This document shows, in pieces, positions 5,202 through 31,607 of a stretch of 37,836 nucleotides of DNA. The position numbers and the translations under genes were made by a program. The first letter of the stretch is position 1, and each line of letters opens with the position of its first letter. The notes under the pieces are model-generated. The model saw only the letters and a list, made by a program, of their open reading frames with translations, was not told the DNA's origin and did not search any database. Source of the DNA: Candidatus Nitricultor lacus (GTDB lineage: Bacteria; Atribacterota; Atribacteria; Atribacterales; Atribacteraceae); contig SKXZ01000224.1 of the NCBI GenBank assembly GCA_007128145.1, positions 1 through 37,836 of the forward strand, read 5' to 3'.

Positions 5202-5398
5202 TAAAAAGCGGGGGAAGGTAGGGCGGGGAAGTGGGGAATTGGAAAGGCGGTGGAATTCCACTACTCACGACTCCCTACTCCCGACTCACTGACTTTGCAC
5301 CCCTTCTACCCTTTTACCCTTATACCCGTCTACTTAGATGCCCGTCTACCCTTTTACCAATATACACATATACACATATACGCGTATACGCATTTCCG
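5202..5398. repeat. Mosaic intergenic repeat block: module C (inverted, 5202-5247), module A (5258-5298, + orientation), module B 8-nt periodic tract (5299-5398)
   Basis: CCACTAC TCACGAC TCCCTAC TCCCGAC TCACTGA heptamers are followed by ACCCTTTT ACCCTTAT ACCCGTCT ... ACACATAT ACACATAT ACGCGTAT ACGCATTT octamers. The same modules recur at 23530-23760 and 31385-31607. Confidence 0.85.
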
Positions 5399-5412
5399 TT
5401 CGAGCTCTTGAA

Positions 5413-5847
5413 TTATTCGAGAAAGGGATTGATTACCGTCACTTCCCCGTATTTCTGCTTATGAGAAAGGTCTTCTGACCAGAGTATGGAACAACCAAGG
5501 CAGTTGGCACTACATATGATGAGTGCATCCCAAAAAGAAAGCTCGAATCTTTGCTGTATCGTAATAGCTTCCAAAATATCCTTTAGATCAGGCATATGAA
5601 ATTTCCATTGCCCAAGATCAGCAATAATCAATGATGCTTTATCATACGGCAAGGGTTTGGGAACCTTCTGAGTGATGTTCACATATAATTCCTGAAGAAC
5701 CTGGCTGCTCAGGCACCCATTTCCAGTATGCCAGAGTTTTTTTACCAATGCAGTTGAACGCATGTTCTTATCAGGATCCGAACGGTCAAAAGCGTATATA
5801 AATATATTTGTATCTACAAATTGTAATATACTATTTCTTTCTTTCAT
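5413..5847 (-). CDS. vapC: PIN-domain toxin (VapC family)
   Basis: 144 aa. Acidic PIN residues are in context (FVDTNIFIYAFD, QVLQEL, FWDALI, WSED). It overlaps the upstream small antitoxin ORF. Confidence 0.8.
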   Translation of the reverse strand: MKERNSILQFVDTNIFIYAFDRSDPDKNMRSTALVKKLWHTGNGCLSSQVLQELYVNITQKVPKPLPYDKASLIIADLGQWKFHMPDLKDILEAITIQQRFELSFWDALIICSANCLGCSILWSEDLSHKQKYGEVTVINPFLE

Positions 5848-6079
5848 GAACTTCTTCTCTTTCCCAGGGAATTTTTCCTTCCATTCCCAGATTGAAGCCT
5901 TTTTCTAACAGGGCAAGCTGTCTGGAACATGCATTTTGGTATGCTTTTTCATTGTTTACCAATTCTTCAAGAACCCTGGTTAACAGTCCTGATACTGATG
6001 TGTTTTTATCCACGGCAATATGTTTTACTTTTTGAAGTAAATCCTTAGGCAAAGAAAGGGTTATATTGCGTCGTTCCAC
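5831..6079 (-). CDS. vapB: Ribbon-helix-helix type antitoxin (VapB-like)
   Basis: Start reassigned to GTG 6079 (SD GGAGGTG, 8 nt spacing). The N-terminus VERRNITLSLPKDLLQKVKHIAV is a typical RHH beta-strand/helix. It is the 5' partner of the PIN gene. Confidence 0.65.
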   Translation of the reverse strand: MERRNITLSLPKDLLQKVKHIAVDKNTSVSGLLTRVLEELVNNEKAYQNACSRQLALLEKGFNLGMEGKIPWEREEVHERKK

Positions 6080-6111
6080 TGTATGGTCACCTCCACGTAT
6101 ATAAGTATAAC

Positions 6112-6139
6112 ACATTAATACGTGAGATATGAAATTCAA
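6112..6139 (-). promoter_or_regulatory. Candidate vapBC promoter with a flanking inverted repeat (ACGTAT..17 nt..ATACGT)
   Basis: Minus strand: TTGAAT, 16 nt spacer, TAATGT. The ACGTAT/ATACGT arms bracket the -10 and TSS region, as expected for antitoxin autoregulation. Confidence 0.4.
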
Positions 6140-6145
6140 CCTTCA

Positions 6146-7351
6146 CTACCGATTCAGGAAAAACCAGAAAACGGCCCATGAAGCCACCGCCAGTGTCGGC
6201 AGTATCATTTTCCGGTACACAGAGGCCAATTGTACATCGAAGTAGCGGCAGGAAACCACCAGGCACAGGTGGGTAGGGGAAAAGATGATGCCTGCATAGC
6301 CTCCCATGAAAACGAGGGGAAGTATCGCTTCCAGGGGATACCCGGTCAATAAGGGCAAAACCACGGGGAGGGATATACCAACAAAGGCGGCGCTGAAGCC
6401 GCTCACCAGGGCAACCAGGAAAGGAATTCCCATGCCCAGGGCAAGCACGGGTAAATCACGTGCCACCAGATACTCCACCGTCTGATTGACCACGCCGGTT
6501 CCCAGAAGAACCGCCTGGAAAACCAGGATACCGGTTATATCAAGCACCAGGCCGGCGGACGCTTTCCCCCACAGGGAAGAAAAGATTTTTTTCACTGGAA
6601 CGCGCTGGAACAGGACAGAGGCCACGATTCCCAATACTGCTCCCAGCCAGGCAGGTCCTCCCAAAAGAATCACGATCACCGGTACAACAACGGGTGAAAT
6701 AGCCCGGAAGATCCCTGTATTTCCAGCATTTTCCTCTTTTCCCCCGTTCTCCCCGAATTCCTCCTCCGGCTCCCTTCGTACCACCCACCAACCGGCCACG
6801 GCGGCTATGAGAGCAAAAGGCAGATGGCGACTCATCACCCAGGATAGAGGCACCTCAGCGAGGTTGGAAAAGAGGAGTATCGCCGGATAGAGGGGGAGGA
6901 CATATTCCCACACGTGCCGGAACCAGTAATTTATGAAGGTGAGGGTGGACGTGGTGGTACGATGCGAAGGCCGGGAAGCGTCTACCATGGGTGCGGAAAA
7001 CAATGCTCCGCCCGGCATGGGTAAAAGACCGATCATGAAAGGAAGAACAACGGACAATCTCCTCCTGCCCCGTACCAGGTTCTTTCCCGCCTGTACCATC
7101 CGCTCTATTCCCCCGGTCCGTGAGAGAAAGGTAGCCAGACACATAATGGCCATCACCGCGGCAATAAGTTCGAGGTTTTCAGGATCGAGAAACGTGGAGA
7201 TAGTGAGCGATACTGCCTGAAGAGGTGGCACACCATGCAGAAGGAACAATATTCCCGAAGCCAGCAACAGGGACAACCCCAGGTTGATTTTGTAACGAAG
7301 AAGAAAGAGCACCATGGCGAAAACACCCAGAATAGAAAAAAGAGCATACAT
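6146..7351 (-). CDS. Polytopic integral membrane protein, putative transporter (DUF401-like)
   Basis: 401 aa with roughly 10 or more hydrophobic segments and a short charged central loop (REPEEEFGENGGKEENAG). Family assignment is from memory of overall architecture only. Confidence 0.45.
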   Translation of the reverse strand: MYALFSILGVFAMVLFLLRYKINLGLSLLLASGILFLLHGVPPLQAVSLTISTFLDPENLELIAAVMAIMCLATFLSRTGGIERMVQAGKNLVRGRRRLSVVLPFMIGLLPMPGGALFSAPMVDASRPSHRTTTSTLTFINYWFRHVWEYVLPLYPAILLFSNLAEVPLSWVMSRHLPFALIAAVAGWWVVRREPEEEFGENGGKEENAGNTGIFRAISPVVVPVIVILLGGPAWLGAVLGIVASVLFQRVPVKKIFSSLWGKASAGLVLDITGILVFQAVLLGTGVVNQTVEYLVARDLPVLALGMGIPFLVALVSGFSAAFVGISLPVVLPLLTGYPLEAILPLVFMGGYAGIIFSPTHLCLVVSCRYFDVQLASVYRKMILPTLAVASWAVFWFFLNR

Positions 7352-7404
7352 TCATTGCCTCCATTACGTTGCTTGATGGGTGATGGATCGAAAAACAGCG
7401 TTCC

Positions 7405-8406
7405 TTACTCCACCCTTTGTGCATCCAGCTTTCGCAAAAATTGATTCAGCTCTTGGGCTACCCGGTGTGGTTTTTCCTCATGGGGAAGATGACCGCACCG
7501 CTTGAGTATGACCAGATCCGCATCGGGTACAATGTTCTGCAGACTTTCAGCATGTTGAAGGGGAACAAGGGGGTCATCGGCTCCTTGAATGATGAGGACC
7601 GGCATATCAAGGAGGGAGAAATCCGGAAGAACATGATTGCGGCCTGAATCCCGAAAAAGATATAAAAGCGCAAGGCGGGACCTGGGATTATCCACCAGGG
7701 GGTTTATCAAGCGCTCGACCATATCTTCATCCACTATCCCGGGGTCGTATACACTCTCACGCAGGATATCGGCCAACTTCCCTGGTGAGCGCACAAGGCG
7801 GCGTACCAGGGTGCTTGCCACAACCCGGGTGAAAGGGAAATCCACCAAAAAACGGGCAAAGGGAATGCCCCGTGCGGTGTAGACAGCGGGCGAGAGGAGG
7901 ACAATACCCACTACCATCTCCGGCATGGAAAGCGCGATCCGCAGGGCCAGGTTTGCGCCCATGGAGTGCCCGACAAGCACTGCTTTTTCCCGGCCTTTTT
8001 CAGAAATAAACTCCCCCAGCAAGCGCGCCTGGTTCCGGTGTGAATAATTCTCCATTCTAGCGGGGCGTGACCGGCCCTGGCCGGGAAGGTCAACCAGCAA
8101 AATATGTTCTTCTCCCTCCCAATAGCCAAGCAACGGTTCCCAAGTCCGCAGGTTTTCCCCGAACCCGTGTAAAAAAACTACGGTCACATCATCAGGACTA
8201 TCTCCCTCCCGGTAATGAAGCATATTGTGCGAAAATTCATTATACCTCGATTGCGAAATTTCAGTGCGCTGGTGAGACGCAAACCCCATGGCTTGCGCGG
8301 AAAAAAGAAACACTACCATCCCTGCAATAACACACAGGATGAGGGGTGCATGGATTTTCTCAGGTATCACTGTCAACCCCTTCTTTCCCAATCGAGTTTT
8401 CCACAT
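7405..8406 (-). CDS. Alpha/beta-fold hydrolase with N-terminal signal anchor
   Basis: HGFGEN oxyanion region, nucleophile elbow GHSMGA, and C-terminal GADD...CGHLPHEE catalytic Asp/His context. The N-terminal TM is HAPLILCVIAGMVVFLF. The start overlaps the upstream gene by 47 nt, so the start is uncertain. Confidence 0.8.
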   Translation of the reverse strand: MWKTRLGKKGLTVIPEKIHAPLILCVIAGMVVFLFSAQAMGFASHQRTEISQSRYNEFSHNMLHYREGDSPDDVTVVFLHGFGENLRTWEPLLGYWEGEEHILLVDLPGQGRSRPARMENYSHRNQARLLGEFISEKGREKAVLVGHSMGANLALRIALSMPEMVVGIVLLSPAVYTARGIPFARFLVDFPFTRVVASTLVRRLVRSPGKLADILRESVYDPGIVDEDMVERLINPLVDNPRSRLALLYLFRDSGRNHVLPDFSLLDMPVLIIQGADDPLVPLQHAESLQNIVPDADLVILKRCGHLPHEEKPHRVAQELNQFLRKLDAQRVE

Positions 8407-8608
8407 CCTTGATAATGAAATAAGCGCGTGTGAACTGGTTTACCGGTACCTGGATGTCTACACCGGCTGAATCTCCGAAGTAGGCTTCGCCACCGTACGG
8501 TTCGGTGGTGGACTTGAGAACCACCTTGATCCCCTCGGCCTCAAGATGCCCGCGAATAAGCTCGGCTTCCATCCGGGTATGGGTCGTTTTTACAGTTTTA
8601 TACTCCAC
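8360..8608 (-). CDS. Small DUF2007-like (putative signal-transducing) protein
   Basis: 82 aa. The MEAELIRGHLEAEGIKVVL pattern is typical of the DUF2007 beta-alpha-beta fold. Confidence 0.5.
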   Translation of the reverse strand: MEYKTVKTTHTRMEAELIRGHLEAEGIKVVLKSTTEPYGGEAYFGDSAGVDIQVPVNQFTRAYFIIKDVENSIGKEGVDSDT

Positions 8609-8807
8609 TCCGCGTCAGCTCCTTTCTCACTACTTTTCTATACCTCAACCACTCCTTCTCTCCCTCAATTCCCCCGTATCTACAGTTTTCTTATTCACCT
8701 GATGTGATTTGCGATGTGTGAAATGAACCTTATTTATTATAGAATATATATCAATTCCAGAAATATGAGAAAAATTCAAAAGGCTATTGAGGGTTATGGG
8801 CGTTTAT

Positions 8808-8846
8808 TTACTACTCACGATTCACGACTCACGACTCACTGTATTT
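8808..8846 (+). repeat. Module A heptamer repeat, sense-oriented in the 5' leader of the nitroreductase gene
   Basis: TTACTAC TCACGAT TCACGAC TCACGAC TCACTGT, then ATTTCAGAAC GGAGG TTTTCA ATG (8864). Confidence 0.85.
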
Positions 8847-8863
8847 CAGAACGGAGGTTTTCA

Positions 8864-9592
8864 ATGAACGAAGAACTGGGAGCACGTTTTCAGCGTTTTA
8901 CCAAGTATTATCCGGGAGTAGCCCCTTCAAGGAAAATCAGTCAAACCTCACCCCCTGAGCCATTCAAAACCTACACGGATGTTCCGGTTGTGCAACTACC
9001 GACCCCAACCACGCTTTCTGCGCCCTTGCAGCAATTACTCAAGCAGCGTAAAAGCGTGCGGCATTATGAAAGGAAAGCTCTTACTCCCGAAGAGGTTGGA
9101 ACGCTTCTGTGGGCCGCAGGCGGTGTGCGGAGCCATGAGGGAAACTATTACTTTCGCACCGCTCCTTCTGCCGGAGCCCTCTATCCCCTGGAAACGTACG
9201 TTGCAGCCAACCGGGTGGAAGGAATCCCGGCCGGTATCTACCACTACCGGGTAAGGGAACACCTGCTGGAAGAAATAAACAAAGGTGAAAAGGGAGCAGA
9301 CTTCGCCAAAGCCTGCATGGGGCAGGATTTCCTCTTCCAGGCACCGCTGGTGGTAGCCTGGACAGCGGTCTTTGCCCGTGCAGAGTGGAAATACGGAGAC
9401 CGGGCTTACCGCTATGTGTACCTGGATTGTGGCCACGTGGCCCAAAACCTCGCCCTTGCCGCCTGTGCCATGGGGTTGGGGTCCTGCCAGGTTGGAGCGC
9501 TCTTTGATGATAAGGTCAATTCACTGCTTGGCGTGGACGGGGAAAAGGAAAGTATCCTGTATATGAGCTCGGTGGGTGCACCCGGTGAATAA
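8864..9592 (+). CDS. SagB-type dehydrogenase / nitroreductase-family protein
   Basis: Start reassigned to ATG 8864 (SD GGAGG); the track ORF's first 50 aa are translated repeat. RKSVRHY, SAGALYP and LDCGHVAQNLALAA are nitroreductase-fold hallmarks. Confidence 0.8.
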   Translation: MNEELGARFQRFTKYYPGVAPSRKISQTSPPEPFKTYTDVPVVQLPTPTTLSAPLQQLLKQRKSVRHYERKALTPEEVGTLLWAAGGVRSHEGNYYFRTAPSAGALYPLETYVAANRVEGIPAGIYHYRVREHLLEEINKGEKGADFAKACMGQDFLFQAPLVVAWTAVFARAEWKYGDRAYRYVYLDCGHVAQNLALAACAMGLGSCQVGALFDDKVNSLLGVDGEKESILYMSSVGAPGE

Positions 9593-9644
9593 AATACACG
9601 TGAGCGAGCGCGAAAGAGCAGATATTTCCGGAAAAAGGGAGTCG

Positions 9645-10271: not shown

Positions 10272-10277
10272 CGGAAT

Positions 10278-11390
10278 TCAGAGCACTTCAGGCATAAAGC
10301 GGCCGTCACGGTAGAAAATTTCTCCATCGGCCGCTATTTCTCCCCCTCCACGCATGTCACACAGCATATCCCAATGAAGAGAAGAGCGGTTTTTGCCGCC
10401 CGCCTCCACCATGGAATCGCCCAGGGCAAGGTGCACCGTCCCCCCGATTTTTTCGTCAAAGAGCATATTGTGCGTGAATTTCTCGATCCGATTATTTGTA
10501 CCGATGGCCACTTCACCAAAAGAGGAAGACCCCTCGTCTGTTTCGATAAGAGAATGCAGAAGGTTTTCACCTTTGCGGGCACGGGCTTCCTTTACCCTGC
10601 CCTTTTCCATCCGAAGCCATATACCCTCAACTTCCCGTCCCTGGAAAATGCCCGGAAAATCGAAGGTGATCTCTCCATCCACCACGCCTTCGAGCGGAGA
10701 GGTAAAGATTTCCCCGTCAGGGAAATTCGCCTTTCCGCAGCAATTCACCCACTTCCTGCCCTTGATACCCACGGTGAGGTCGGTTCCCCGGGACCGTATC
10801 CGCAGCATTTCCTTTTTTGAAAGATACTCAACCCACCGCTCCTGCTCTTTTTCAACCTCCCGCCAGGCCGCCACCGGATCATCCTCATCCAGTCTACCCG
10901 CACGGAACACAAAATCGGTGTACTCTTCAATACTCATACCCGCCTCCTGGGCATCGGCATTGGTGGGAAATTGCGTGCCGCACCAGCGTAAACTCCCCTC
11001 ACCCATGCGCTGGGAGAATAAACGGCGAGTTTCTCTATCAGCGCGCATCGCGATTCTTATACGTTCCGGGTCAATGTTTGTCCGTGCACGGGTGTTCCAT
11101 CCACCCCAAGCGGATATGAACACATCCGCTTTTTCCACCACGGTGCGATATATCGTGTTTTCATGTGCAAGCGCTTCTTCTTCCGCGTGGCGCAACCGTA
11201 TTCGGGATACAGAATCCAGTGTCACCCAGGGCTCCACCACCGCTCCGCACTGTACAGCCTTTCTCGCTACCGCTTCGATAAACGGGATGGCTATATCTTC
11301 GGCCGCGATATATACTCTATCCCCCCGGCGTACCTGGGTCGAATATGTCACCAGAACATCTGCAAGCTTGTGGAGCCTTGAATCGATCAC
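10278..11390 (-). CDS. M29-family aminopeptidase (AmpS/PepS, aminopeptidase T-like)
   Basis: Start reassigned to GTG 11390 (SD AAGGAGGAGG). The N-terminus IDSRLHKLADVLVTYS and the C-terminal HLALGDS / HWDM motifs are typical of peptidase M29. The track ORF's first 26 aa are translated repeat. Confidence 0.8.
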   Translation of the reverse strand: MIDSRLHKLADVLVTYSTQVRRGDRVYIAAEDIAIPFIEAVARKAVQCGAVVEPWVTLDSVSRIRLRHAEEEALAHENTIYRTVVEKADVFISAWGGWNTRARTNIDPERIRIAMRADRETRRLFSQRMGEGSLRWCGTQFPTNADAQEAGMSIEEYTDFVFRAGRLDEDDPVAAWREVEKEQERWVEYLSKKEMLRIRSRGTDLTVGIKGRKWVNCCGKANFPDGEIFTSPLEGVVDGEITFDFPGIFQGREVEGIWLRMEKGRVKEARARKGENLLHSLIETDEGSSSFGEVAIGTNNRIEKFTHNMLFDEKIGGTVHLALGDSMVEAGGKNRSSLHWDMLCDMRGGGEIAADGEIFYRDGRFMPEVL

Positions 11391-11407
11391 ACCGCACCTC
11401 CTCCTTT

Positions 11408-11441
11408 GTAAATGCAGTGAGTAGGGAGTCGTGAGTAGTGG
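11408..11441 (-). repeat. Module A heptamer repeat, sense-oriented immediately 5' of the aminopeptidase SD
   Basis: Minus strand: CCACTAC TCACGAC TCCCTAC TCACTGC ATTTAC AAAGGAGGAGG TGCG GTG. Confidence 0.85.
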
Positions 11442-11593
11442 AAAAAACACCCAAACCCTCAACTGCATTTAACATATTTGATGCCGCAACGTATGTTGCT
11501 GGGCGGCTCCTTTGTGAATGCAGTGATTACATAAAAACATACTTTACCATGAAGAGGATTTTCGGAAAAGTGCATCTCTATAAAAGGCCTGAA

Positions 11594-12055
11594 GGCAGGG
11601 GAATGCCCTTCGGGCCGGGAGACGGGAGTCGTAAGACGTAAGACGGATAAAGACGGGGGAAAGGATTGAAAAATGCGTGAGGGGTGAGGGGCCATGTAAA
11701 GTATGAAGTATGATTTCAGAAGTATGAAGTCAGATTTTCAAATCTACATTCATAAATCCGACTTCAGCAATTCCTGTGTCATTCCGGCATGTGGTAAACC
11801 GGAATCCAGTGGCTTTCTTAAAGGCGGTCTAGGAGTGAGTGTTGAAGGGAAAAAACTTTTGACCGTTGGTGTATTAACCCTAAACTCTAGACTCTAAACC
11901 CTAAACAGCTTTTATAGGGCGGTCTAGGGTCGAGCGTTAAGAGTTTAGAGCAAGGGACGTTCGAAGGTTGAGCACAACCACTCATGGCTAAAAATGGGGA
12001 CGCATCCAGGACCCCACTTCATGCCGGGGTGACGAAATGTGGTTGGCCGTGAGAT
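11594..12055. repeat. Mosaic repeat block X (modules E, C-like, AGTATGA heptamers, I, H, CCCTAAA heptamers, G)
   Basis: It shares ordered modules, in inverted orientation, with 16666-16978. Module G (12009-12055) is 47/47 identical to the reverse complement of 16666-16712. Confidence 0.85.
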
Positions 12056-12119
12056 ATAAGAAGAAACTCTGATCCTTCTCTTCCGTAGTAAGAAAAAAGA
12101 CAAATATCAGGAGAGTACC

Positions 12120-12527
12120 ATGAAGCAGAGAGCAAGTTTCAATCACCTTGTAGACGTATTTCTTTTGGCTTGTGTTTTTTTTGTGCTTCTTTTCACTGCA
12201 GGTTGTGCCCCGTCTCATTCTCCTCAGCCGCGGGATGAAGCGGATTTTCTTGGAGAAATAATCCAAATCTCAGAAAACCCGCACCAAACGACCGAGGGAA
12301 AGATCCTGGTGGAAAATCATGATGAACCGGAGGAGGGCTTTGACCTGGTTTGGCTTTTTGTCGATGGGGATACCGTAATCATGGATTACCGGGTTGAGCC
12401 TCCTCAAAGCGGAAATTTCAGGGATCTTGCAATCGGTCAGAAAGTAAATGTATGGACGGATGATATTTTTCTTTTAACCTATCCTCCTCAGGGAGGTGCG
12501 ATACACATCCACATACTCGAGGACTGA
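12120..12527 (+). CDS. Small lipoprotein (possibly DUF3221-like)
   Basis: Signal peptide with lipobox LFTAGC; 135 aa. The C-terminal TYPPQGGAIHI resembles the SYPxQ motif I associate with DUF3221 (family call weak). Confidence 0.5.
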   Translation: MKQRASFNHLVDVFLLACVFFVLLFTAGCAPSHSPQPRDEADFLGEIIQISENPHQTTEGKILVENHDEPEEGFDLVWLFVDGDTVIMDYRVEPPQSGNFRDLAIGQKVNVWTDDIFLLTYPPQGGAIHIHILED

Positions 12528-12634
12528 GCAAGTCCTTACTGAAAACCCATAAATTACGGGGAATATTTTTACATTCCGTACCTTTTCTCTACATATACGC
12601 ACAACACATCAATATTTACCGGGAGGCTTATATC

Positions 12635-12997: not shown

Positions 12998-13038
12998 GTA
13001 AATGCGGGCTATGAATCTACAGGCCGTCAGGATACGCC

Positions 13039-13067
13039 TTGACGCAAAAAGGAAAAAGTGGTAGTAT
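13039..13067 (+). promoter_or_regulatory. Near-consensus sigma70-type promoter of orphan RNA-1
   Basis: TTGACG (13039-13044), 17 nt spacer, TGgTAGTAT (-10 at 13062-13067 with extended TG). The predicted TSS is about 13074. Confidence 0.65.
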
Positions 13068-13073
13068 CTTTTC

Positions 13074-13252
13074 AGATCACGGGTTCCGAGGAGTTTTTTG
13101 GTCCGAAGGCCGGAAGCCGTCCTGGGAAACACCTGCAAGAGGGACGACCGGCATGTTCTGTAACCGCCGGAAGATATGAGGGGAAAGATGCGTTGCCCCG
13201 GCGTGAGAGAGAACTTCCAGGTTCGTTGGGACCCGTGATCTTTTGTATTTTT
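13074..13252 (+). ncRNA. Orphan structured small RNA (RNA-1), class unassigned
   Basis: A 14 bp closing helix pairs AGAUCACGGGUUCC (13074-13087) with GGGACCCGUGAUCU (13228-13241) and is extended by GGAGUU/AACUUCC. Three internal hairpins follow (GGUC-CGAA-GGCC; CCGG..CGUCC/GGACG..CCGG; CGCC..GGGG/CCCC-GGCG), then the 3' tail UUUUGUAUUUUU. There is no credible ORF and no downstream same-strand gene. Confidence 0.55.
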
Positions 13253-13275
13253 GGAACAGAAGAGGCTTAATCCCT

Positions 13276-14981: not shown

Positions 14982-15000
14982 TATTTCACCTCTTTAAAAC

Positions 15001-15030
15001 AAGCAGGGGGGCTTTTTATCCCCCCTGCTT
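15001..15030 (-). terminator. Intercistronic stem-loop between the binding-protein and permease genes (partial terminator / mRNA stabiliser)
   Basis: Perfect 11 bp stem AAGCAGGGGGG / CCCCCCTGCTT with an 8 nt loop. On the minus strand it is followed by GUUUUAAAGAGGUGAAAUA AUG. Confidence 0.6.
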
Positions 15031-15038
15031 TCGTAACT

Positions 15039-16316
15039 TCAGTTTCCGGAGTAGTACTCATCCAGGAGCTGGTTGATTTCAACTGCTGCGTCGTCAAGAG
15101 CTTGCTGAATATCCTTTTGATCCAATAGGATCGCGGTGGTAGCATTACGCTGAATTTCGGCTATATCCGGGTACTGCGGGAAAATGGGACGGTACAGGGC
15201 TGTGGTTAACTGGTCGAAGATAACTTCGGGGTGCCGGCGGCGTTCCTGTAGGAAGGAAACTGCGGCTTCCTGGTTCGCCGGAGTGAGAGAAGATACCTTT
15301 TCATTCACTTCTGTGCTGGTCCAATACTCGATGAACTTCCAGGCTTCGTCCTTGTGAGGTGTCATCTCGAATATAACCATGTTCCAGCCGCCGAAAGTGC
15401 CGATGCTCTCTCCTCCCTCGGGTTTCGGGAAATTCCCCAACCCCCAATCCATGTCGGGTGCCCGGCTCAGAACGGTATCTTCGCCCCATTCCCCATACCA
15501 GAACATGGAAACTGATCCCGCGGTGAAGAGCATGAATGAATCTTCTTCGCTGCGTGCGACTTCCCCCGGAGGATTATAGGGCTGCAGGCTTTTGAAAAAT
15601 TCCATTGCTTCTACGCCTTCTGCTGAATTGAGAACCGCTTCGGTAAAGTCTTCGTTCAGGACAGAACCCCCCGCGGAGAAGATCAAGGCATTTGTGATGC
15701 ATTGAATGGCATCACCGGTACCCACAAACAAAGAGGTACCCCATTTGTCATCTTCGCCGTCCCCGGTGGTATCACGGGTCAGCATTTGTGCGTATTCATA
15801 GAATTCATCCCAGGTTACCGGAGGCGCTTCAGGATCAAGTCCTATTTCCCGAAAATGCTCCTTGTTGTAATAGTTTAGAGCCCAAACACCGACATCAAAG
15901 GGGATTCCGTAGAGTTGTCCCTGGTAGAGTGCAGAATCCCAGGCACCGGAAAAATACGCTTCCTCGTTCACGGTATCTGATGCTGCTACATATTCATCAA
16001 GAGGGACGATGAACCCCGCGGCTGAAAACTCAGGATTCCAGATCTGGTCCACTACCGCGACATCGGGTGGATTCCCCGCGGCGGCAGCGATCAAAAGCTT
16101 GTCTCGATATTCAACATAGGGAAACACGGTGAACTGTACATCGATTTCAGGATAGATTACCCTGAATTCTTCCAATGCCTCTTCCTGGGCACGCTGAAGA
16201 TCTACATCAGCCTGCACCATCATCCACACATCGAGTGTTACCTGCTGTGCAAAGGAAGCAGGAATGAACACCAGTGTAAGAAAACACACGGCAACCAATA
16301 TGAGACTCTTTTTCAT
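15039..16316 (-). CDS. Extracellular solute-binding protein, family 1 (sugar ABC transporter)
   Basis: Start reassigned to ATG 16316 (MKKSLILVAVCFLTLVFIPASFA signal peptide, SD AGGGAGG). The first 25 aa of the track ORF are translated repeat. Confidence 0.85.
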   Translation of the reverse strand: MKKSLILVAVCFLTLVFIPASFAQQVTLDVWMMVQADVDLQRAQEEALEEFRVIYPEIDVQFTVFPYVEYRDKLLIAAAAGNPPDVAVVDQIWNPEFSAAGFIVPLDEYVAASDTVNEEAYFSGAWDSALYQGQLYGIPFDVGVWALNYYNKEHFREIGLDPEAPPVTWDEFYEYAQMLTRDTTGDGEDDKWGTSLFVGTGDAIQCITNALIFSAGGSVLNEDFTEAVLNSAEGVEAMEFFKSLQPYNPPGEVARSEEDSFMLFTAGSVSMFWYGEWGEDTVLSRAPDMDWGLGNFPKPEGGESIGTFGGWNMVIFEMTPHKDEAWKFIEYWTSTEVNEKVSSLTPANQEAAVSFLQERRRHPEVIFDQLTTALYRPIFPQYPDIAEIQRNATTAILLDQKDIQQALDDAAVEINQLLDEYYSGN

Positions 16317-16332
16317 GAAATATTCCTCCCTT

Positions 16333-16383
16333 GTGAATGCAATGAATAGGGAGCAGGGAGTCGTGAGTAGGGGGAGGAGTAAA
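16333..16383 (-). repeat. Module A heptamer repeat, sense-oriented immediately 5' of the binding-protein SD
   Basis: Minus strand: CCCCTAC TCACGAC TCCCTGC TCCCTAT TCATTGC ATTCACA AGGGAGG AATATTTC ATG. Confidence 0.85.
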
Positions 16384-16613
16384 TCCCTCATTTCTAATGG
16401 CTCGCGGATCCCCTTTCCCCATTTCTCCCCTTTCCCCTTATTTTACAGGGATCCAGAGGCTTCTTATCAAACAAGAACCAAGGAAACAGAATTCCCATCC
16501 CTGTTTATTACATAAAGTGACAAGCTTACTCCATACGCTAATAACCGGATAATGCACCTCTCATTTTTACACTCCAAATCGTTTTCTGATTATTTTTTAT
16601 CACCTCCCCGGTA

Positions 16614-16653
16614 GGTGCAGTGAGTAGGGAGTGGGGAGTCGTGAGTAGTGGAA
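16614..16653 (-). repeat. Second module A copy upstream of the same operon
   Basis: Minus strand: CCACTAC TCACGAC TCCCCAC TCCCTAC TCACTGC ACC. Confidence 0.85.
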
Positions 16654-16665
16654 ACTCAATTCTTA

Positions 16666-16978
16666 ATCTCACGGCCAACCACATTTCGTCACCCCGGCAT
16701 GAAGTGGGGTCCAGAGGCAGAGGCAGTGCCCCATGCCGGGGTGACACAACAGGGCATTCCCCGCTGTATTCGTCCCCTGCATTTTAAAGCCACTGGATTC
16801 CGGCTTACTCCATGCCGGAATGACACAGGATATTGATGATTTCAGATTTATGATTGTAGATTTGTAAAGCCTTTCCACTTCCCCATTTCAACAATTCCCC
16901 GCCTCACCTTCCCCGCTCCTCCTTCCCCGGCCTTTATCCGTCTCACTGCCCGAAGGGCATATCCCGCTGTATTCGTCC
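16666..16978. repeat. Mosaic repeat block Y (modules G, E-like, H, I, C, E), the inverted counterpart of block X
   Basis: Its reverse complement aligns module by module with 11594-12055. Its distal part (16888-16978) is inside the 3' end of the URO-D-family ORF. Confidence 0.85.
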
Positions 16979-18087
16979 ACCAATTTTGATACTTCCCGTA
17001 CCCGTTCGATATCTCCCGGTGGAGAAATTTCATCGGATATACCCAGTATCAAACGGGGAGCAAAAAGATCGATAACTTTTTTTGAAGTTTCCACAAATTC
17101 TTCCCTTTCGTATTCGGGTAAAAAGTGGAGCATGGGGATGCCGTCCAGAAGAATAGTCTCACCCATGGCTTCCTTTATCTCTTCCAGAGTAACATCTCCC
17201 TGGGGAAGCGGGGTGGCCGCTTCGATCCCGTCGAAACCAGCGTCATTGATGTAGGGGAGCAGGGGTTTGAGAACACCGTCCATGTGTACGTGGCAGTACT
17301 TGTGCGCACGGTGAAGCTGATCCACTCTCTTGCGGTAATAGGGAACCATGTATTCTGAAAATAGGCGGGGAGAATTAAACCGCCCGTCGATATTTTCACC
17401 GAAGTTGAGAATACGTACCGGGCAATTGCACAATACCTCGAAAAGTTCATCTTCAGCTTCCTGCGTAATTTTCAGGTATTCCTTGATGCGTTCTGGATAA
17501 TCGTAAAGGGCTTCGCAGGTTCGGACGATTCCAAGGTACTCGAGAAACAGGCGTTGAAAAGGGCTGCGTTCCCAGTAAAACTGTATCTCACCCCGGTCAC
17601 CGATTACACGGCGTGCTTCCTGGTAAAAATCCTGATCAAAGCGATAACGGGTATGACGGTATATATACTCGATAACGGCCAGGTCATCCGGTCCATTCAC
17701 GGGATGATCGAGATAATGCCAGGACAATCCGCCCTCAGCCAACCCTTTTCGGCCGGTGAGGGTGCCAACAGGGGTGTCAAAGGTCACCTCGATGTCTTTT
17801 TCCCGGCGAATTTCCCGAATTTCTACTCCACCGGTGTACTCAAAGTGTATATACGTACGAGGTGTTGAGATGTCCGTTCCCTCACCGTACCAGTAGCGTA
17901 TCGAAGCCCCCACATCATCGTACACGCCAAGAAGCGGGGTGTCACGGTAGGCTTGCGGTAATTCCCCGGTGAGCTTGTTCACATGGTACCAGTGTTCCAA
18001 CCTCGGTTGCCAGGCCACCCGGTCGATTTCTTTCCTCTGAAAGGTACGTAAAACCCGTTCCCGGTCAGTCAAGCGTTTTTTCTCCAT
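16888..18087 (-). CDS. Uroporphyrinogen-decarboxylase (URO-D) family protein of unknown substrate
   Basis: Start at ATG 18087 (MEKKRLTDRERVLRTFQRKEIDRV, typical URO-D-like/MtaA-like N-terminus; SD GGGGGGAG). The last 30 aa or so (…SGICPSGSETDKGRGRRSGEGEAGNC) are encoded by repeat modules. Confidence 0.6.
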   Translation of the reverse strand: MEKKRLTDRERVLRTFQRKEIDRVAWQPRLEHWYHVNKLTGELPQAYRDTPLLGVYDDVGASIRYWYGEGTDISTPRTYIHFEYTGGVEIREIRREKDIEVTFDTPVGTLTGRKGLAEGGLSWHYLDHPVNGPDDLAVIEYIYRHTRYRFDQDFYQEARRVIGDRGEIQFYWERSPFQRLFLEYLGIVRTCEALYDYPERIKEYLKITQEAEDELFEVLCNCPVRILNFGENIDGRFNSPRLFSEYMVPYYRKRVDQLHRAHKYCHVHMDGVLKPLLPYINDAGFDGIEAATPLPQGDVTLEEIKEAMGETILLDGIPMLHFLPEYEREEFVETSKKVIDLFAPRLILGISDEISPPGDIERVREVSKLVDEYSGICPSGSETDKGRGRRSGEGEAGNC

Positions 18088-18217
18088 TGAATTTCTCCCC
18101 CCAAGAGTCGTGAGCCGTGAAAACACACAACATACAGTACCTTTTCCTTCAAACTTCGCTGCACAATAGCCTTATATACCTTTACAGGCATAAAGAACTA
18201 TAAACCATGCATCATAG

Positions 18218-23509: not shown

Positions 23510-23529
23510 AGAGTGTTTCCCTCTAAATA

Positions 23530-23870
23530 GATTGTATATGCGTAGACAAATGGGTGGATGTGTAAATGCGTATAAGGGTAAAAGGGGGGGGGCAAATGCA
23601 GTGAGTCGGGAGTAGTGGAAAGGTTTAAATGCCGTGAGGAGTAAGGAGTGAGGGGTGAGGAGTAAAAGGCCCCACTTCTTACGATTCACTGCTCACGGCA
23701 TTTATCATTCCCCATTTCACCTTCCCCGCCCCACTTTCCCCGGCTTTTACCCGATTCACGGCCCGAAGGACTGTCACTGCCCGAAGGGCATTCCCCCTCG
23801 ACTCTAACCCTTGACTCTCGGCTGCCTTTAGATTTCCCTTCTAACTTCTAACCTCTTACTCTTCACCGTT
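23530..23870. repeat. Mosaic repeat block (module B inverted 23530-23591, A inverted 23592-23622, long hairpin D 23627-23703, C 23707-23752, E 23754-23797, CTCTAAC/AACTTCT heptamers to about 23870)
   Basis: It is largely collinear with 31385-31607 for about 190 nt. Module A/B is sense-oriented upstream of the ThiI-like gene. Confidence 0.85.
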
Positions 23871-23938
23871 TTTAGAATCCTTCTTCCCCAGTTTTTTCTC
23901 TTAGTATACATATTCGGGATGAGTTTTTCACCCCAATC

Positions 23939-25371: not shown

Positions 25372-25382
25372 CGTACATCCTC

Positions 25383-26681: not shown

Positions 26682-26695
26682 GATATATTTCCTCT

Positions 26696-27631: not shown

Positions 27632-27676
27632 TTTCTCTAACCCCTTTCTCGAGTTCCTGGAAAATAAGCCGCACGG

Positions 27677-28114
27677 TCAGATGGAAAAATCGAGCGTGAG
27701 GCATTTTTTCTTTCCCAGTTCCACCGCATCCTGCAAAGTCAACTTTGCAAGAGCTTTTTCTATTTCCACCTTTACTCCTATCCAGACTTCCCGTGCCACA
27801 CATTCGCTCACACGGCTGCATGATGTTCCCTCCAAGCAATCAGCTGGTATAATCCCTCCCTCGAGAGCTTCGATCACATCCTTGAGAGTAATGTCTGAGG
27901 GTGGACGGGCCAATTTGTACCCCCCACCGGCTCCTCGAACAGATTTCACCAAACCTGCAACTCTCAGCTGTGAAGCTATTTGTCCCAGGTATTTCCCTGA
28001 TATTCCTTCCCTTTTACTCACTTCACGGAGCTGAAGGGGAAAATCTTCCTGTACGTTTCCCGCCAGTTGAAGAAAAAAACGCAGTCCATATCTGGTTCGG
28101 GTGGATAGTTTCAC
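27677..28114 (-). CDS. Rrf2-family transcriptional regulator (CymR/IscR-like)
   Basis: GTG start. The MKLSTRTRYGLRFFLQLA N-terminus and the wHTH are typical of Rrf2. It is the first gene of the cysK-metY-metA operon. Confidence 0.85.
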   Translation of the reverse strand: MKLSTRTRYGLRFFLQLAGNVQEDFPLQLREVSKREGISGKYLGQIASQLRVAGLVKSVRGAGGGYKLARPPSDITLKDVIEALEGGIIPADCLEGTSCSRVSECVAREVWIGVKVEIEKALAKLTLQDAVELGKKKCLTLDFSI

Positions 28115-28135
28115 CAGTCAATTCACCTCTATAAA

Positions 28136-28154
28136 TACTATAATATCTATAGTA
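28136..28154. promoter_or_regulatory. Perfect palindrome, candidate Rrf2 operator overlapping the TSS
   Basis: TACTATA-5 nt-TATAGTA (7 bp arms) lies 2-20 nt downstream of the predicted TSS of the rrf2 promoter. Confidence 0.5.
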
Positions 28155-28162
28155 ATAATATT

Positions 28163-28191
28163 ATATTACTCTCCTGCATAATAATTGTCAA
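28163..28191 (-). promoter_or_regulatory. Consensus-like sigma70 promoter of the rrf2-cysK-metY-metA operon
   Basis: Minus strand: TTGACA (28191-28186), 17 nt spacer, TAATAT (28168-28163). Confidence 0.65.
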
Positions 28192-28312
28192 CGACGATGG
28201 AAGTTGAGACACGATTCATTTTTTTTCTTCTTTCTCCGTTTTTCCGGGGATCGGCCATCTAAACCACCTTCATCGAACTCCTATTGTTGTTATGGAAAGT
28301 CATATACGCAGC

Positions 28313-29740
28313 TTATTCCCCGTCATCCACCACCTCGAAATAACCTGCTATCATGCCCATCCAGCAACTGAACTTGTACCGTCCCGGTGGAGGCGGGTCA
28401 AATTCCACCACCGCTGTTCCCCCTCTCACCAGATCAACTTCCCCTTCAAAAAGATCACGGGAAATAACTGCATCGGTACACCCGCTGAATCCCTGGTCCT
28501 CAATTTCCCACCGTACGGGTACCCCTTCTCTCACTCGTATAAGCTCTGGCTCGTAGGCAAACGCCATGGCCTGCGTGGAAACAACCTGCCTTCTTCCAAC
28601 AAGGGGTGGGAGTTCACTCTCCGTTTGACGAGATGAGGTGAGAGTGCGCGTACGTGCGATCATACCCAAATCAGTGGGACTGGGAAGTCCCAGCATGTTG
28701 AGTTGATAGTTGATGGTAAAAAGAGCGAACACCACCACTATTGTTCCGGCAACCCGTAGAAAAGCCTGTGAATAACGGGGTGAACGGAGAAAATGAACAC
28801 TGGTGAATCCTATACCGACCAAAACCGGAGTAGTCCCCAGGGCAAAAAGAAACAATATTAACGCACCGCTCATTGCGCTCCCGGAGAGCAGAGCGATACC
28901 CTGCACGGTGATGGTAAAACCACAGGGCAAAAAGACCGTGAGTGCCCCCAGCGCAAAGGGCAGGATTCCACCATGCAAACGTCCATGCCCGGAAATACCT
29001 CCCTCAAGCCAGCGCATAAAGGTAAAACGTGAAAAGCCGGGTAACCTCATTCCCAGCATTTGCAGCCCCAGTACAAATATGCATGCCGCAACGGCCATAA
29101 CAACAAGAGCTTGCACCGTATAAGAGAAACGAAACGTGCCTCCCAAAAACCCGAGCACCGCACCAAAACCGGCAAATGCAGCCAATCTTCCCCCGTTAAA
29201 AAGGAGATGAGGAGCCAGTCTGGAGAACCAGGTAGCTTTAGCAGACTGAAAACGATCCATGCTCCTGCTCAACGTAAGAACTATTCCTCCAACCAAAGCC
29301 ACACACCCGGACAAACCCGCCATCAGTCCAAATAGTAAAAAGAATGGAAGAGCGGAATCTGTACCAACCCATATCCGAGCGGTAAAGCCGCTTTGTTCAG
29401 CGGCGTACAAAGCACCGACAATCACTCCTGCAAAGACAACGGGCATAAGCTTCGACCTCAAACCCCTTTGCGGGTGGGCAATAGCTTGTTCACTCAACCG
29501 GTAACCCAACCTGCTTAAAGTCTTTTCTACCTGTTCAAATACCTGATGCCTGCCATCATGTTCCACCATCACTTCTCCGCGGGATAAAGAAGCCACACAA
29601 GATCTCACACCGGGTATTTCGATTACTGCTCTCTCAATGGCCGCTTCACATGAAGGACAATGCATTCCCTCAACATACCAGACGGTTTCACGGAATTCCC
29701 TTTCCTGTGCGTTTTTGGTGTTGTGTCCTTGCCGAGACAT
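28313..29740 (-). CDS. Fusion protein: N-terminal HMA metal-binding domain, polytopic TauE/DsbD_2-like membrane domain and C-terminal cupredoxin-like domain
   Basis: GMHCPSCE (HMA CxxC), about 6-8 TM segments, and a C-terminal beta-rich domain ending FSCWMGMIAGYFEVV (Cys/Met copper-ligand-like). Confidence 0.65.
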   Translation of the reverse strand: MSRQGHNTKNAQEREFRETVWYVEGMHCPSCEAAIERAVIEIPGVRSCVASLSRGEVMVEHDGRHQVFEQVEKTLSRLGYRLSEQAIAHPQRGLRSKLMPVVFAGVIVGALYAAEQSGFTARIWVGTDSALPFFLLFGLMAGLSGCVALVGGIVLTLSRSMDRFQSAKATWFSRLAPHLLFNGGRLAAFAGFGAVLGFLGGTFRFSYTVQALVVMAVAACIFVLGLQMLGMRLPGFSRFTFMRWLEGGISGHGRLHGGILPFALGALTVFLPCGFTITVQGIALLSGSAMSGALILFLFALGTTPVLVGIGFTSVHFLRSPRYSQAFLRVAGTIVVVFALFTINYQLNMLGLPSPTDLGMIARTRTLTSSRQTESELPPLVGRRQVVSTQAMAFAYEPELIRVREGVPVRWEIEDQGFSGCTDAVISRDLFEGEVDLVRGGTAVVEFDPPPPGRYKFSCWMGMIAGYFEVVDDGE

Positions 29741-29889
29741 TATTTCACTCCTCTCTCCTCACAGCAAATATCTTGTGGGAATATTATATATATATAATAA
29801 GTTTAGTAAATATAATATGGTTGAATTCTTTCTTTTTTTTGATTCAATAGTGTACAATTGGTTTTTGAAAGAGAGGGAGGGCTAAGGCT

Positions 29890-30360
29890 ATGAAGAAAAG
29901 CGGAACGGTTATTGAAACGCAAAACGGGTACGCTGTTGTGCGGATGGAGCGTGGCGCTCCGGCTTGCGGAGGGGGAAGCTGTCCCCTGAGTTCTCCCCTT
30001 CTCGATTATTCGTCCTCGAGTTCATTGGAAATACGAGCTGAAAACCCTATGGGAGCTACAGCGGGAGAAAGGGTATGGGTGGAATTATCCGATATGCAGG
30101 CTCTTGGTATCGCTTTTTTCACGTATCTCTTTCCGATAATTCTTGTCATTGGAGTATTCGCGCTCGTCAACTCTCTCTTTCTGCAATGGTGGGTTCAAGC
30201 CACAGCGACAATAGGAGCAGCGGCTTTCGCCTTTTTCATCTTGAAAAGGATGGACAAACTTGCATCTCCCCGTTACCGGGTGGTAGATGTCTTAGGGGAA
30301 GAAATTGACTGTTCTTCCTGTCCTTTGCAAAAAGAAAAAGCGGATGAAGAAACCCAATGA
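29890..30360 (+). CDS. rseC: RseC/MucC-family (SoxR-reducing system component-like) protein
   Basis: The N-terminus G-x-V-x-x...YAVVRMERGAPACGGGSC is followed by two TM helices, which is the RseC_MucC architecture. Confidence 0.6.
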   Translation: MKKSGTVIETQNGYAVVRMERGAPACGGGSCPLSSPLLDYSSSSSLEIRAENPMGATAGERVWVELSDMQALGIAFFTYLFPIILVIGVFALVNSLFLQWWVQATATIGAAAFAFFILKRMDKLASPRYRVVDVLGEEIDCSSCPLQKEKADEETQ

Positions 30361-31355
30361 ACATAGCTTTTTTCGAAGTTACACGACCCCAGGAGGTTTA
30401 CCTCTCCTCTCAATTGAAAGGGTACAATCTTCGTTTTTATCCTGACCCACTACGGGAAAGTGAACTCGATTCGCTTTCTGATATCGAGGTTCTCTCCGTG
30501 TTCATTTCTTCCAGCATCGGGGAAAAAGAACTGGAGCGTCTTCCCCGCCTGCGCTATATCACAACCCGCTCTACTGGAACCGACCATGTAGATGTCGAAA
30601 GATGCAAGAAGCGCGGGATCGCTGTCAGCAACGTTCCTCATTACGGTGAGAACACGGTAGCGGAACATACTTTCGCTCTTATACTGTCATTATCACGTAA
30701 CATTCACCGTGCTTTCCTGCGGACTGAAAAAGGAGATTTCACCATTGCCGGGCTCGAGGGTTTTGACCTGCGGGGCAAAATTTTAGGTGTGGTGGGAACA
30801 GGAAGAATCGGCGTCCATGTCATAAAAATCGCGCAGGGTTTCGGTATGCTCGTGGCTGCATTCGATGCCCATCCCAACCACATTCTCTCGGAGGTGATGG
30901 GTTTTTCCTACACGTCTTTTCCCGAACTTCTCTCCATATCTGATATCGTTTCCCTTCACCTGCCGCTTACCCCACAAACCGTCCACATCATCGATCGTGA
31001 TGCCCTATCAAAAATGAAAAAAGAGGCTCTCCTCATAAATACCGCCAGAGGTGGCCTGGTTGACACAGTGGCTTTAGTTGAAGCTTTGGAAAATGGAAAG
31101 ATTGCCGGTGCCGGACTTGATGTCATAGAGGGGGAAGAGATATTGCGGGAGGAGGATGTTTTATTGCGGGACGAAGACCCCCCGGACACATGGCCACCCC
31201 AGGCCCGCGCCCTCATCGAGCGGGAAGATGTCATGCTTTCTCCCCATATTGGATTCTACAGCAGGGAAGCCGTAAAACGGATACTCTCAGAAACCGCGAA
31301 AAATATCAAAGCGTTTGTGGATGGCGAGGTGCGAAACGAGGTCGCTTCACAATGA
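30357..31355 (+). CDS. D-isomer-specific 2-hydroxyacid dehydrogenase (NAD-binding)
   Basis: GVVGTGRIGVHV Rossmann motif, the NTARGGLVD...E...H catalytic context, and a 4 nt overlap with the rseC-like gene. Confidence 0.85.
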   Translation: MNIAFFEVTRPQEVYLSSQLKGYNLRFYPDPLRESELDSLSDIEVLSVFISSSIGEKELERLPRLRYITTRSTGTDHVDVERCKKRGIAVSNVPHYGENTVAEHTFALILSLSRNIHRAFLRTEKGDFTIAGLEGFDLRGKILGVVGTGRIGVHVIKIAQGFGMLVAAFDAHPNHILSEVMGFSYTSFPELLSISDIVSLHLPLTPQTVHIIDRDALSKMKKEALLINTARGGLVDTVALVEALENGKIAGAGLDVIEGEEILREEDVLLRDEDPPDTWPPQARALIEREDVMLSPHIGFYSREAVKRILSETAKNIKAFVDGEVRNEVASQ

Positions 31356-31384
31356 ATGCAGTGATGGGTGTTGGTGGGCCAGAA

Positions 31385-31607
31385 TGCGGGCCTAGGTGCG
31401 TGAATGCGAAGGGTAAAAGGGGAGCAAAGGCAGTGAGTCGTGAGTAGGGAGTCGTGAGCAGTGGAAAGGTTTAAATGCCGTGAGGAGTAAGGAGTGAGGA
31501 GTAAAAGACTCACTTCTTACGATTCACTGCTCACCGCCTTTATCATTCCCCATTTCAGCTCTTCTCCGCCTCACCTTCCCCGCCCCATCTTCCCCGGCTT
31601 TTATACG
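31385..31607. repeat. Mosaic repeat block between convergent genes (B-like, A inverted 31424-31469, hairpin D 31473-31541, C 31544-31607)
   Basis: It is collinear with 23560-23752. Confidence 0.85.

Follow-up and report, generated by a model that had tools for sequence, protein, structure and literature searches.

The classic case of tandem heptamers in bacteria is that of the short tandemly repeated repetitive (STRR) sequences, which were reportedly described by Mazel and colleagues in 1990; their units, CCCCAGT, TTGGTCA, and CAACAGT (STRR1-3), are found in heterocystous cyanobacteria. Intergenic mosaics of another sort are the bacterial interspersed mosaic elements (BIMEs) and repetitive extragenic palindromes (REPs) of enterobacteria and the pneumococcal BOX elements, which comprise few, hairpin-forming modules, vary in their internal modules (boxB), and break short-read assemblies. 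Here, we describe the intergenic repeats of contig SKXZ01000224.1 of “Ca. Nitricultor lacus” (37836 nt; the whole stretch is referred to as the window), in which a first-pass annotation had noted a shuffled family of short modules with internal periods of 7 and 8 nt. The existence of these periodic intergenic modules is confirmed, and we consider it likely that they constitute a lineage-specific, noncoding, and strand-asymmetric family of short tandem repeats that belongs to the heptanucleotide simple repeat class (STRR-like) and is organized as hairpin mosaics.

In many prokaryotes, the long simple repeats are reported to have heptanucleotide units more often than any other, for which Mrazek and colleagues have proposed a link with polymerase slippage and with the stretch of DNA held by the polymerase (Mrazek 2007, as summarized in PMC4692102 and PMC4679880). 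In Xanthomonas, about 185 GGGAATC arrays include 70 to 75 convergent inverted pairs, and their length varies between species (Rehm et al. 2015, PMC4692102). Arrays of TAACTGA lie immediately upstream of start codons in marine Beggiatoaceae, cyanobacteria, and some Bacteroidetes, where S1, Csp, or CsrA has been suggested as the binding protein (MacGregor 2015, PMC4679880). Geobacter metallireducens carries elements of four heptanucleotides (GGACCGG x4) at 49 loci, annotated as possibly regulatory (PMC2700814).

The window divides into 4094 intergenic and 33742 coding bases, and the periodic signal is found in the spacers only, with the coding sequence being flat. Autocorrelation at lag 7 was 0.321 in intergenic DNA (z = 9.2 relative to dinucleotide-preserving shuffles) versus 0.252 in coding DNA, with corresponding values of 0.308 (z = 7.1) versus 0.246 at lag 14 and 0.292 (z = 4.6) versus 0.252 at lag 8. 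The lag-14 signal arises because the units often alternate (TCACGAC with TCCCTAC, or the 14-mer TTCCCCGCCCCACC), which makes 14 the actual period. Of the intergenic bases, 191 fall in strict period-7 blocks; of the coding bases, none do. Dispersed, nontandem matches, which are 80 to 100% identical to one another in the spacers, account for 18.7% of intergenic versus 0.21% of coding bases, and the “coding” matches consist only of a copy of module C that enters the 3' end of one open reading frame (ORF). Tandem Repeats Finder returned about 20 arrays with a period of 7 or 14 and two with a period of 8 (5301-5333 and 5360-5393), nearly all of them in spacers, and a GC skew with a magnitude of at least 0.7 was found in 15% of intergenic 30-nt windows versus 2% of coding ones.

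The modules listed in the first-pass annotation were all found where it had placed them, and its unit counts for module A, the tandem heptamer array, were correct: three at 23598-23618, four at 11414-11441, and five at 5258-5292, 8808-8842, 16339-16373, 16617-16651, and 31430-31464. It had spoken of at least eight spacers but listed seven, all with genuine modules, and the site that it gave as 18105-18120 does carry module A, but with two units only. Seven spacers exceed 250 nt in length, and its statement that almost every long spacer is filled holds for six of them, the exception being 12998-13275, which is without modules. Overall, a dispersed, modular, and hairpin-prone intergenic family with 7-nt (and 8-nt) internal periodicity is upheld.

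The repeats follow a simple grammar. Module A opens with a head (RAATGCMGTGA), continues with GTMGKGA units, n in number, and closes with a tail (GTAGTGG). There are eight A arrays within the window and nine occurrences of the head motif, RAATGCMGT(T)GA, each of which opens a G-rich array and all of which are located outside genes or at a stop codon. Module D, composed of GGAGTAA and GGAGTGA heptamers, opens with a head shared with module A, AAATGCCGTGAG, and the two modules are one element type, in which D is a variant form of A. Of the other modules, C is made up of heptamer or 14-mer arrays with runs of G or C, and B is made up of octamer arrays. The arrays are strongly strand asymmetric, one strand being almost without C and the other almost without G, and where they form inverted arms, the G-rich one is placed 5' of the C-rich one. 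A CCCTAAA/CTCTAGA array with its G-rich inverted partner (11876-11955, + strand) is the sole pair in the window in which the C-rich arm comes first; the resemblance of its unit to the complement of the plant-type telomere repeat TTTAGGG was treated as a coincidence. Coding repeats were ruled out, since 7 is not a multiple of 3 and the arrays are without ORFs, as was CRISPR, since CRISPR spacers are lacking; a reading as iterons or an origin was rejected.

Arrays combine into nested palindromes of 210 to 230 nt with the order B-A-[D/A' hairpin]-C. Three composites, at 31400-31611, 23540-23760, and (reversed) 5204-5398, are nested imperfect palindromes. On the + strand, the second of these begins with module B in its G-rich orientation (23540-23593), followed by a module A with a head and three units (23594-23618), a D/A' hairpin (23627-23703; -43.7 kcal/mol), and module C in its C-rich orientation, which runs into two GCCCGAAGG(G)C hairpins (23713-23800); a CTTCTAA array (23838-23860, +) lies farther along the same spacer. 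The D/A' hairpin comprises AAATGCCGTGAG, GGAGTAA-type units forming the G-rich D arm, a loop, C-rich units of A type, and CTCACGGCATTT, so that AAATGCCGTGAG and CTCACGGCATTT form the closing stem. The composite at 31400-31611, also on the + strand, consists of a module B remnant and a module A of five units (together 31400-31464, with the units at 31430-31464), a D/A' hairpin followed by TTTATCATT (31473-31541), and module C (31546-31611). Compared with shuffled sequences, the two D/A' hairpins (23627-23703 and 31473-31541) fold with z = -6.3 and -5.5 on the + strand and z = -3.8 and -2.6 on the - strand, and the G-rich B and A modules flanking them pair loosely with the C-rich module C. In the reversed composite, which is read on the - strand, module B has the 8-nt units ACCCTTAT, ACACATAT, and ACGCGTAT (5300-5398), the five units of module A (5258-5292) read CCACTAC, TCACGAC, TCCCTAC, TCCCGAC, and TCACTGA on the + strand and are G-rich on the - strand, and module C (5204-5252; G-rich on the + strand and C-rich on the - strand) makes up the 3' half of a B-A-C arrangement. 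The modules had been described as shuffled and present in both orientations, and they are indeed dispersed, modular, and hairpin prone; they are not freely shuffled, however, but follow a set order as nested palindromes, in which a G-rich 5' half precedes a C-rich 3' half.

The spacers at 11391-12119 and 16317-16887 share a block of other dispersed repeats, which lies at 16666-16868 (+) and is inverted relative to 11735-12055. Within it, a 47-nt repeat at 12009-12055 (+) is 100% complementary to 16666-16712, and a repeat with a CATTCCGG...CCGGAATC hairpin at 11735-11816 (+) is an inverted copy of 16786-16868. A GCCC-TTCG-GGC hairpin followed by GGGAGAC, GGGAGTC, and GTAAGAC heptamers (11598-11650, +) is likewise an inverted copy of 16938-16965, and it is followed by an AGTATGA array (11699-11735, +). 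The second spacer also contains a TCCCCTT array of module C type (16409-16439, +) and a second module A of five units (16603-16651, -), with the SD-like (Shine-Dalgarno-like) head piece CCTCCCCGGTAGGTGCAGTGA on the + strand. At 16869-16965 (+), a module C with the 14-nt unit TTCCCCGCCCCACC is followed by a GCCCGAAGGGC hairpin and overlaps the URO-D-like ORF. About the last 20 codons of that ORF (16888-16947) are module C and lie outside its Pfam domain match, and it seems that the 3' end of the gene has been extended, or replaced, by the repeat.

Eleven strain contigs were compared with the window (strain identity, 99.6 to 99.9%), and the arrays were found to differ in unit number between strains in matching spacers, which is the variation that the first-pass annotation had proposed looking for. 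All indels lie in spacers, inside arrays or homopolymer runs: one strain (L003) has an extra heptamer, AGGAGTG, at 31489 in module D (+7 nt), two (L001 and L003) are without one 14-nt unit at 31575 in module C, and one (L136) is short by exactly 21 nt, or three units, in the AGTATGA array at 11699-11735. Two further changes of 1 nt were found, one beside the 14-nt deletion in module C and the other in the G9 run (23584-23592) at the end of module B. That run lies in what is presumably the leader of the ThiI-like/LarE operon; strain L001 has G8 at this site, and the tract may be phase variable. Across about 33 kb of coding sequence, the eleven contigs showed no indel relative to the window. Because strains that are nearly identical differ in array length by whole units, the variation would stem from replication slippage or unequal exchange.

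The analysis of this genome covered one 38-kb contig and its strain variants. An artefact of metagenome assembly or binning would be one explanation for the pattern. The window is one entire contig, and in other short-read assemblies of the organism the contigs (L132 and L134-L137) terminate at or inside repeat-rich spacers (5400-5550, 16650-16720, and others). However, four independent sources (the metagenome-assembled genome [MAG] GCA_007119915.1 from NCBI, two ENA assemblies, and Logan assemblies) reproduce the locus, including the spacers and their arrays, at 99.6 to 100% identity. Because of this recurrence, the window is not the product of a single assembly, and we regard an artefact as extremely improbable. 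The assemblies that contain the locus come from soda-lake sediment metagenomes.

A syntenic relative (L138; JGI 3300000362) from another soda-lake sediment, with a LarE protein 71% identical in amino acid sequence to that of the window, bears on the history of the repeats. Its spacers are much shorter and contain no arrays of a length detectable by Tandem Repeats Finder; short A-type arrays abut the SD of three of its genes, including the orthologous gene for a sugar-binding protein (TCACTTC TCACGAC TCACGGC). A leader of about 110 nt, made up of an element P, an A array, and TCACTGCATTTA.A.AGGAGG, is about 91% identical between the window (11388-11520, -) and the relative (2278-2410), and it precedes an M29 peptidase gene in the former and an FtrD-like gene in the latter. 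Protein identity between the two is only about 71 to 76%. The high identity at non-orthologous sites shows that the repeats pass from one spacer to another, by movement or by copying, and are retained across species. The window has three genes that the relative lacks, encoding the M29 peptidase, a DUF3221 protein, and the URO-D-like protein (10278-12527 and 16888-18087), and each adjoins one of the two largest repeat-filled spacers.

These observations raise the possibility of miniature mobile elements, similar to MITEs (small transposable elements with inverted repeats) or REP doublets forming hairpins (REPINs), in which palindromic units would be moved in trans by a transposase encoded elsewhere and the heptamer arrays would be passengers. 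The palindromic architecture, the near-identical copies at unrelated spacers (the 47-nt perfect inverted copy and copies of 57 to 58 nt at 90 to 93% identity), the conservation of the leader at different genes in two species, and the coincidence of large spacers with differences in gene content are all consistent with such movement. However, no transposase or REP-associated tyrosine transposase (RAYT) was found among the 30 larger predicted genes of the window in a Pfam scan that left out five short ORFs, terminal inverted repeats with target duplications were not seen, and neither the head nor the P motif turned up in two scans of viral collections. Furthermore, the orthologous spacer of the relative suggests graded expansion of shared short modules in place and not a clean insertion, and the strains compared do not differ in the presence or absence of any whole module. 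We consider mobile elements of this kind unlikely. A search of metagenome contigs with a more specific 20-mer gave seven matches, none from this organism.

With respect to genes, four of the eight A arrays have a C-rich, G-poor sequence in the mRNA sense and end 5 to 12 nt before an SD. The five units at 8808-8842 (+) lie 10 nt before the GGAGG (8853-8857) of a nitroreductase gene (ATG at 8864), and a head with four units at 11410-11441 (C-rich on the - strand) lies directly upstream of GGAGGAGG (11398-11405), the SD of the M29 peptidase gene (GTG at 11390). A head with five units at 16335-16373 (C-rich on the - strand) abuts the SD of the sugar-binding-protein gene (ATG at 16316), and the two units at 18107-18120 (TCACGGC TCACGAC on the - strand) are just upstream of GGGGGGAG, the SD of the URO-D-like gene (ATG at 18087). 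This placement is a tendency and not a rule, because the remaining arrays sit between convergent genes or in the opposite sense.

The conserved leader has a similar predicted fold in both species, in which AAAUGCAGUUGAG pairs with CUCACUGCAUUU, enclosing the array and ending about 5 nt before the SD; its stability relative to shuffles is z = -3.2 in the relative and z = -1.4 in the window. Within the window, element P (11442-11506, -) is the G/T-rich left arm of the M29 leader; it includes AAATGCAGTTGAG (11458-11470), the pairing partner of CTCACTGCATTT, with which module A ends. The leader could be a portable unit or an unrecognized small RNA element. An orphan head/leader piece, TCACTGCATTCACAAAGGAG, lies at 11507-11533 (-) with no gene attached. 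The two species have in common a conserved promoter-like box (GGGTGRAAA...TGTATACT) in the spacer between the FtrD and ThiI genes, and the difference in spacer length, 136 nt in the relative versus 429 nt in the window, lies entirely downstream of it, corresponding to leaders of about 100 versus about 390 nt. Because all of the additional length is downstream of the box, the modules in this spacer are probably part of a long 5' leader.

Such positions suggest that the C-rich arrays could be selected cis-regulatory leader elements that control translation or premature termination by offering a site for binding or standby to a factor with affinity for single-strand RNA, such as ribosomal protein S1, a cold-shock protein, CsrA, or Rho. 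The four arrays before an SD, the three in the relative (one of them at the sugar-binding-protein orthologue), and the conservation of the P-and-array leader far above neutral expectation at 71 to 76% protein identity argue in this direction, and the binding proposal for the TAACTGA repeats (PMC4679880) offers a precedent. However, such arrays are also seen where genes converge and, at 5258 and 31430, in the G-rich sense, and their unit number differs between copies and strains with no obvious constraint.

Arrays in unrelated genomes bear on the same question. A scan of representative genomes used a degenerate module A pattern that also matches pure (AGTGAGT)n, and arrays of the (AGTGAGT)n type were found at more than 119 loci, as a minimum, in many phyla, with members of the Bacteroidota, Cyanobacteria, Alphaproteobacteria (Mesorhizobium and others), Planctomycetota, Acidobacteriota, and Synergistia among them. 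Among the matches listed, to which all of the following counts refer, the source genome does not appear, and the loci resemble the window in the array alone. Both flanks were available for 122 arrays; an inverted partner lies within 150 nt of 29 of these, and the G-rich arm was 5' in all 29 and in the reverse order in none. This polarity is also that of the window composites, apart from the CCCTAAA pair, and agrees with that of the Xanthomonas pairs reported as “convergent.” On the basis of crude ORF calls, arrays in the C-rich sense outnumbered those in the G-rich sense by 33 to 13 at distances of up to 40 nt from an ORF start, which would favor leader elements. By gene context alone, however, arrays in the G-rich sense upstream of genes were not rarer than those in the C-rich sense, and no simple orientation rule emerged with these crude calls. 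Taken as a whole, selected leader elements seem to us a doubtful explanation for the family. A literature search for AGTGAGT or ACTCACT arrays returned nothing relevant.

More speculatively, the window elements might be an instance of a cross-phylum class of heptamer hairpins with two rules beyond neutral slippage, namely, that the G-rich arm is always 5' when arrays of the AGTGAGT type are paired and that C-rich, G-poor arrays without a partner tend, in the mRNA sense, to adjoin start codons. We think this improbable, but if it were true, a conserved mechanism at the level of RNA or replication would select or generate the polarity, the candidates being Rho loading sites that are avoided or exploited, standby sites for ribosomes, and directional template switching.

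A role for unusual nucleic acid structures was also considered, in which G-rich and C-rich modules would act via G-quadruplex or i-motif structures in DNA or RNA, by analogy with the proposal for the Xanthomonas GGGAATC arrays. Canonical G-quadruplex motifs are present in modules C and B (5210-5236, 5300-5327, and, on the - strand of the TCCCCTT array, 16410-16437), at a frequency of 3 per 4.1 kb of spacer versus 3 per 33.7 kb of genes, and the extreme GC skew of the spacers fits such structures. However, the A and D units (GTCGTGA and GGAGTAA), which make up the commonest modules, are without runs of three G and cannot form quadruplexes, and the composites at 23510-23938 and 31356-31626 contain no motif by the standard definition. 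We regard this explanation as very unlikely.

Our preferred reading remains that of a slipping, hairpin-forming tandem repeat family, and we hold its structural and slippage component with considerable confidence. The basic element is the head, array, and tail unit, and arrays placed as inverted arms fold into stable hairpins and nested imperfect palindromes. Whole units would be gained and lost by replication slippage or unequal exchange, and copies reach other spacers and persist across species, with no transposase among the 30 larger window genes scanned. Many copies would lie within transcribed leaders, where a C-rich, G-poor arm just before the SD may tune mRNA structure, stability, or translation, and hairpins between convergent genes may serve as terminators or 3' stabilizers. 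A selected function at the RNA level, of any kind, is conceivable, but we are inclined against it.

Several points weigh against this reading. Slippage leaves the arrival of near-identical composites in different spacers unexplained. Only one of the three composites folds as a whole into a nested hairpin better than shuffles (z = -2.6); the other two do not (z = -1.5 and -0.75). The differences in unit number come from short-read metagenome assemblies, although the arrays are much shorter than one read. The promoters assigned are consensus guesses, and a promoter and terminator scan of the window gave counts not above the shuffled expectation, with weak support for two promoters only. Furthermore, the leader folds at two genes are not significant, and no covariation was found that would support RNA structure.

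The setting of the repeats is that of an ordinary bacterial chromosome, with a G+C content of about 50% and genes for ABC transporters, two GH38 mannosidases, a metA-metY-cysK cluster, and a PIN toxin pair. The best named matches for the window proteins are at most 76% identical and come from Spirochaetes, Brevinematales, and other MAGs; there is no taxonomic marker within the window. A cobalamin riboswitch (4983-5163, -; 109 bits) precedes an operon for a BtuF/FecCD/ABC transporter, and a good promoter match (TTGACT-16-TGnTATACT) is located at 5196-5169, exactly at the border of the composite at 5204-5398. Two AT-rich spacers (28115-28312 and 29741-29889) with palindromic TATA-type runs flank the genes for an Rrf2 regulator and a DsbD/HMA protein; they are without heptamer modules and have the appearance of operator regions.

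The locus bears on why the repeat unit is 7 nt, how copies spread, and what role they might have; among the long simple repeats of bacteria, those with a heptanucleotide unit are the commonest. The locus is a compact and well-resolved case, with a head-array-tail grammar, natural polymorphism in whole units, a leader shared across species at different genes, and arrays before ribosome-binding sites, and it supplies constructs for asking whether unit number tunes expression. In practical terms, the repeat spacers fragment short-read assemblies and MAGs of the lineage, and one repeat appears to extend an ORF.

Compared with described systems, the family is a new example within a known kind of bacterial repeat and not a new kind, because tandem 7-mers, intergenic location, and whole-unit polymorphism are the defining features of that class. 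As summarized in later papers, the long simple sequence repeats of Mrazek, Guo, and Shah (2007) share with the window tandem 7-nt units that are overrepresented between genes and change in copy number by whole units, with slippage as the proposed cause; the arrays described here differ from those summaries in their fixed head and tail, their near-identical dispersed copies, and their ordered palindromic composites with 8-nt arrays. Head-to-tail 7-nt units beyond chance (the lag-7 signal), noncoding enrichment, and whole-unit polymorphism between strains were all found in the window. The suggestion in the first-pass annotation that the module set is not a described family stands insofar as a search with the Rfam 15 covariance models returned nothing for the repeats, even at E <= 1, the cobalamin riboswitch being its sole match; it falls short in that the kind is already described, in heptanucleotide repeats generally, in the Xanthomonas pairs, and in the Beggiatoaceae arrays.

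Within that class, the family is a separate member, because sequence-specific membership in the STRR, TAACTGA, REP/BIME, and MITE groups failed in each case. The BIME analogy holds for architecture only, none of the defining sequence features of BIMEs being present. Like BIMEs and BOX elements, the repeats are intergenic, hairpin-forming mosaics drawn from a small set of modules, variable in internal module number, and disruptive to short-read assembly; unlike them, they have an internal unit of 7 nt instead of 35 to 45 nt, show no sequence similarity, and have no RAYT among the 30 window genes scanned. No imperfect palindrome of 35 to 40 nt with a REP consensus was found, the hairpins being composed of heptamer arms or GCCC-GAAG-GGC stems. 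For MITEs, the comparison with the relative and the strains gave graded module expansion and no presence/absence polymorphism. The elements of G. metallireducens are similar in being multicopy and made of few tandem heptamers, but they have another unit sequence and also occur within genes, whereas the repeats here do not.

The TAACTGA arrays are similarly short (two to six units), are forward oriented with a start codon directly downstream, and precede genes of mutually unrelated function. In the window, however, the unit is different (the nearest being the terminal TCACTGA, TCACTGC, or TCACTGT), inverted partners and composites are common, and a strong SD follows the array, whereas the TAACTGA array replaces the SD. 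The GGGAATC arrays of Xanthomonas and GGGGA(T/C)T arrays of Nostoc are likewise heterogeneous, have two to about five units, are mostly intergenic, and vary in length between close relatives, and the many convergent inverted pairs of Xanthomonas have the same polarity, with the G-rich arm first; the main units here differ in being unable to form G-quadruplexes and in being accompanied by a head, a tail, and flanking modules. The STRR sequences, which the first-pass annotation had fairly named among the nearest analogues, share dispersed intergenic tandem heptamers of several unit types in one genome. The units here (TCACGAC, TCCCTAC, TCCCGAC, GGAGTAA, AGTATGA, and CCCTAAA) include no STRR1-3 unit, the host is probably not cyanobacterial, and the organization into hairpins distinguishes the family described here.

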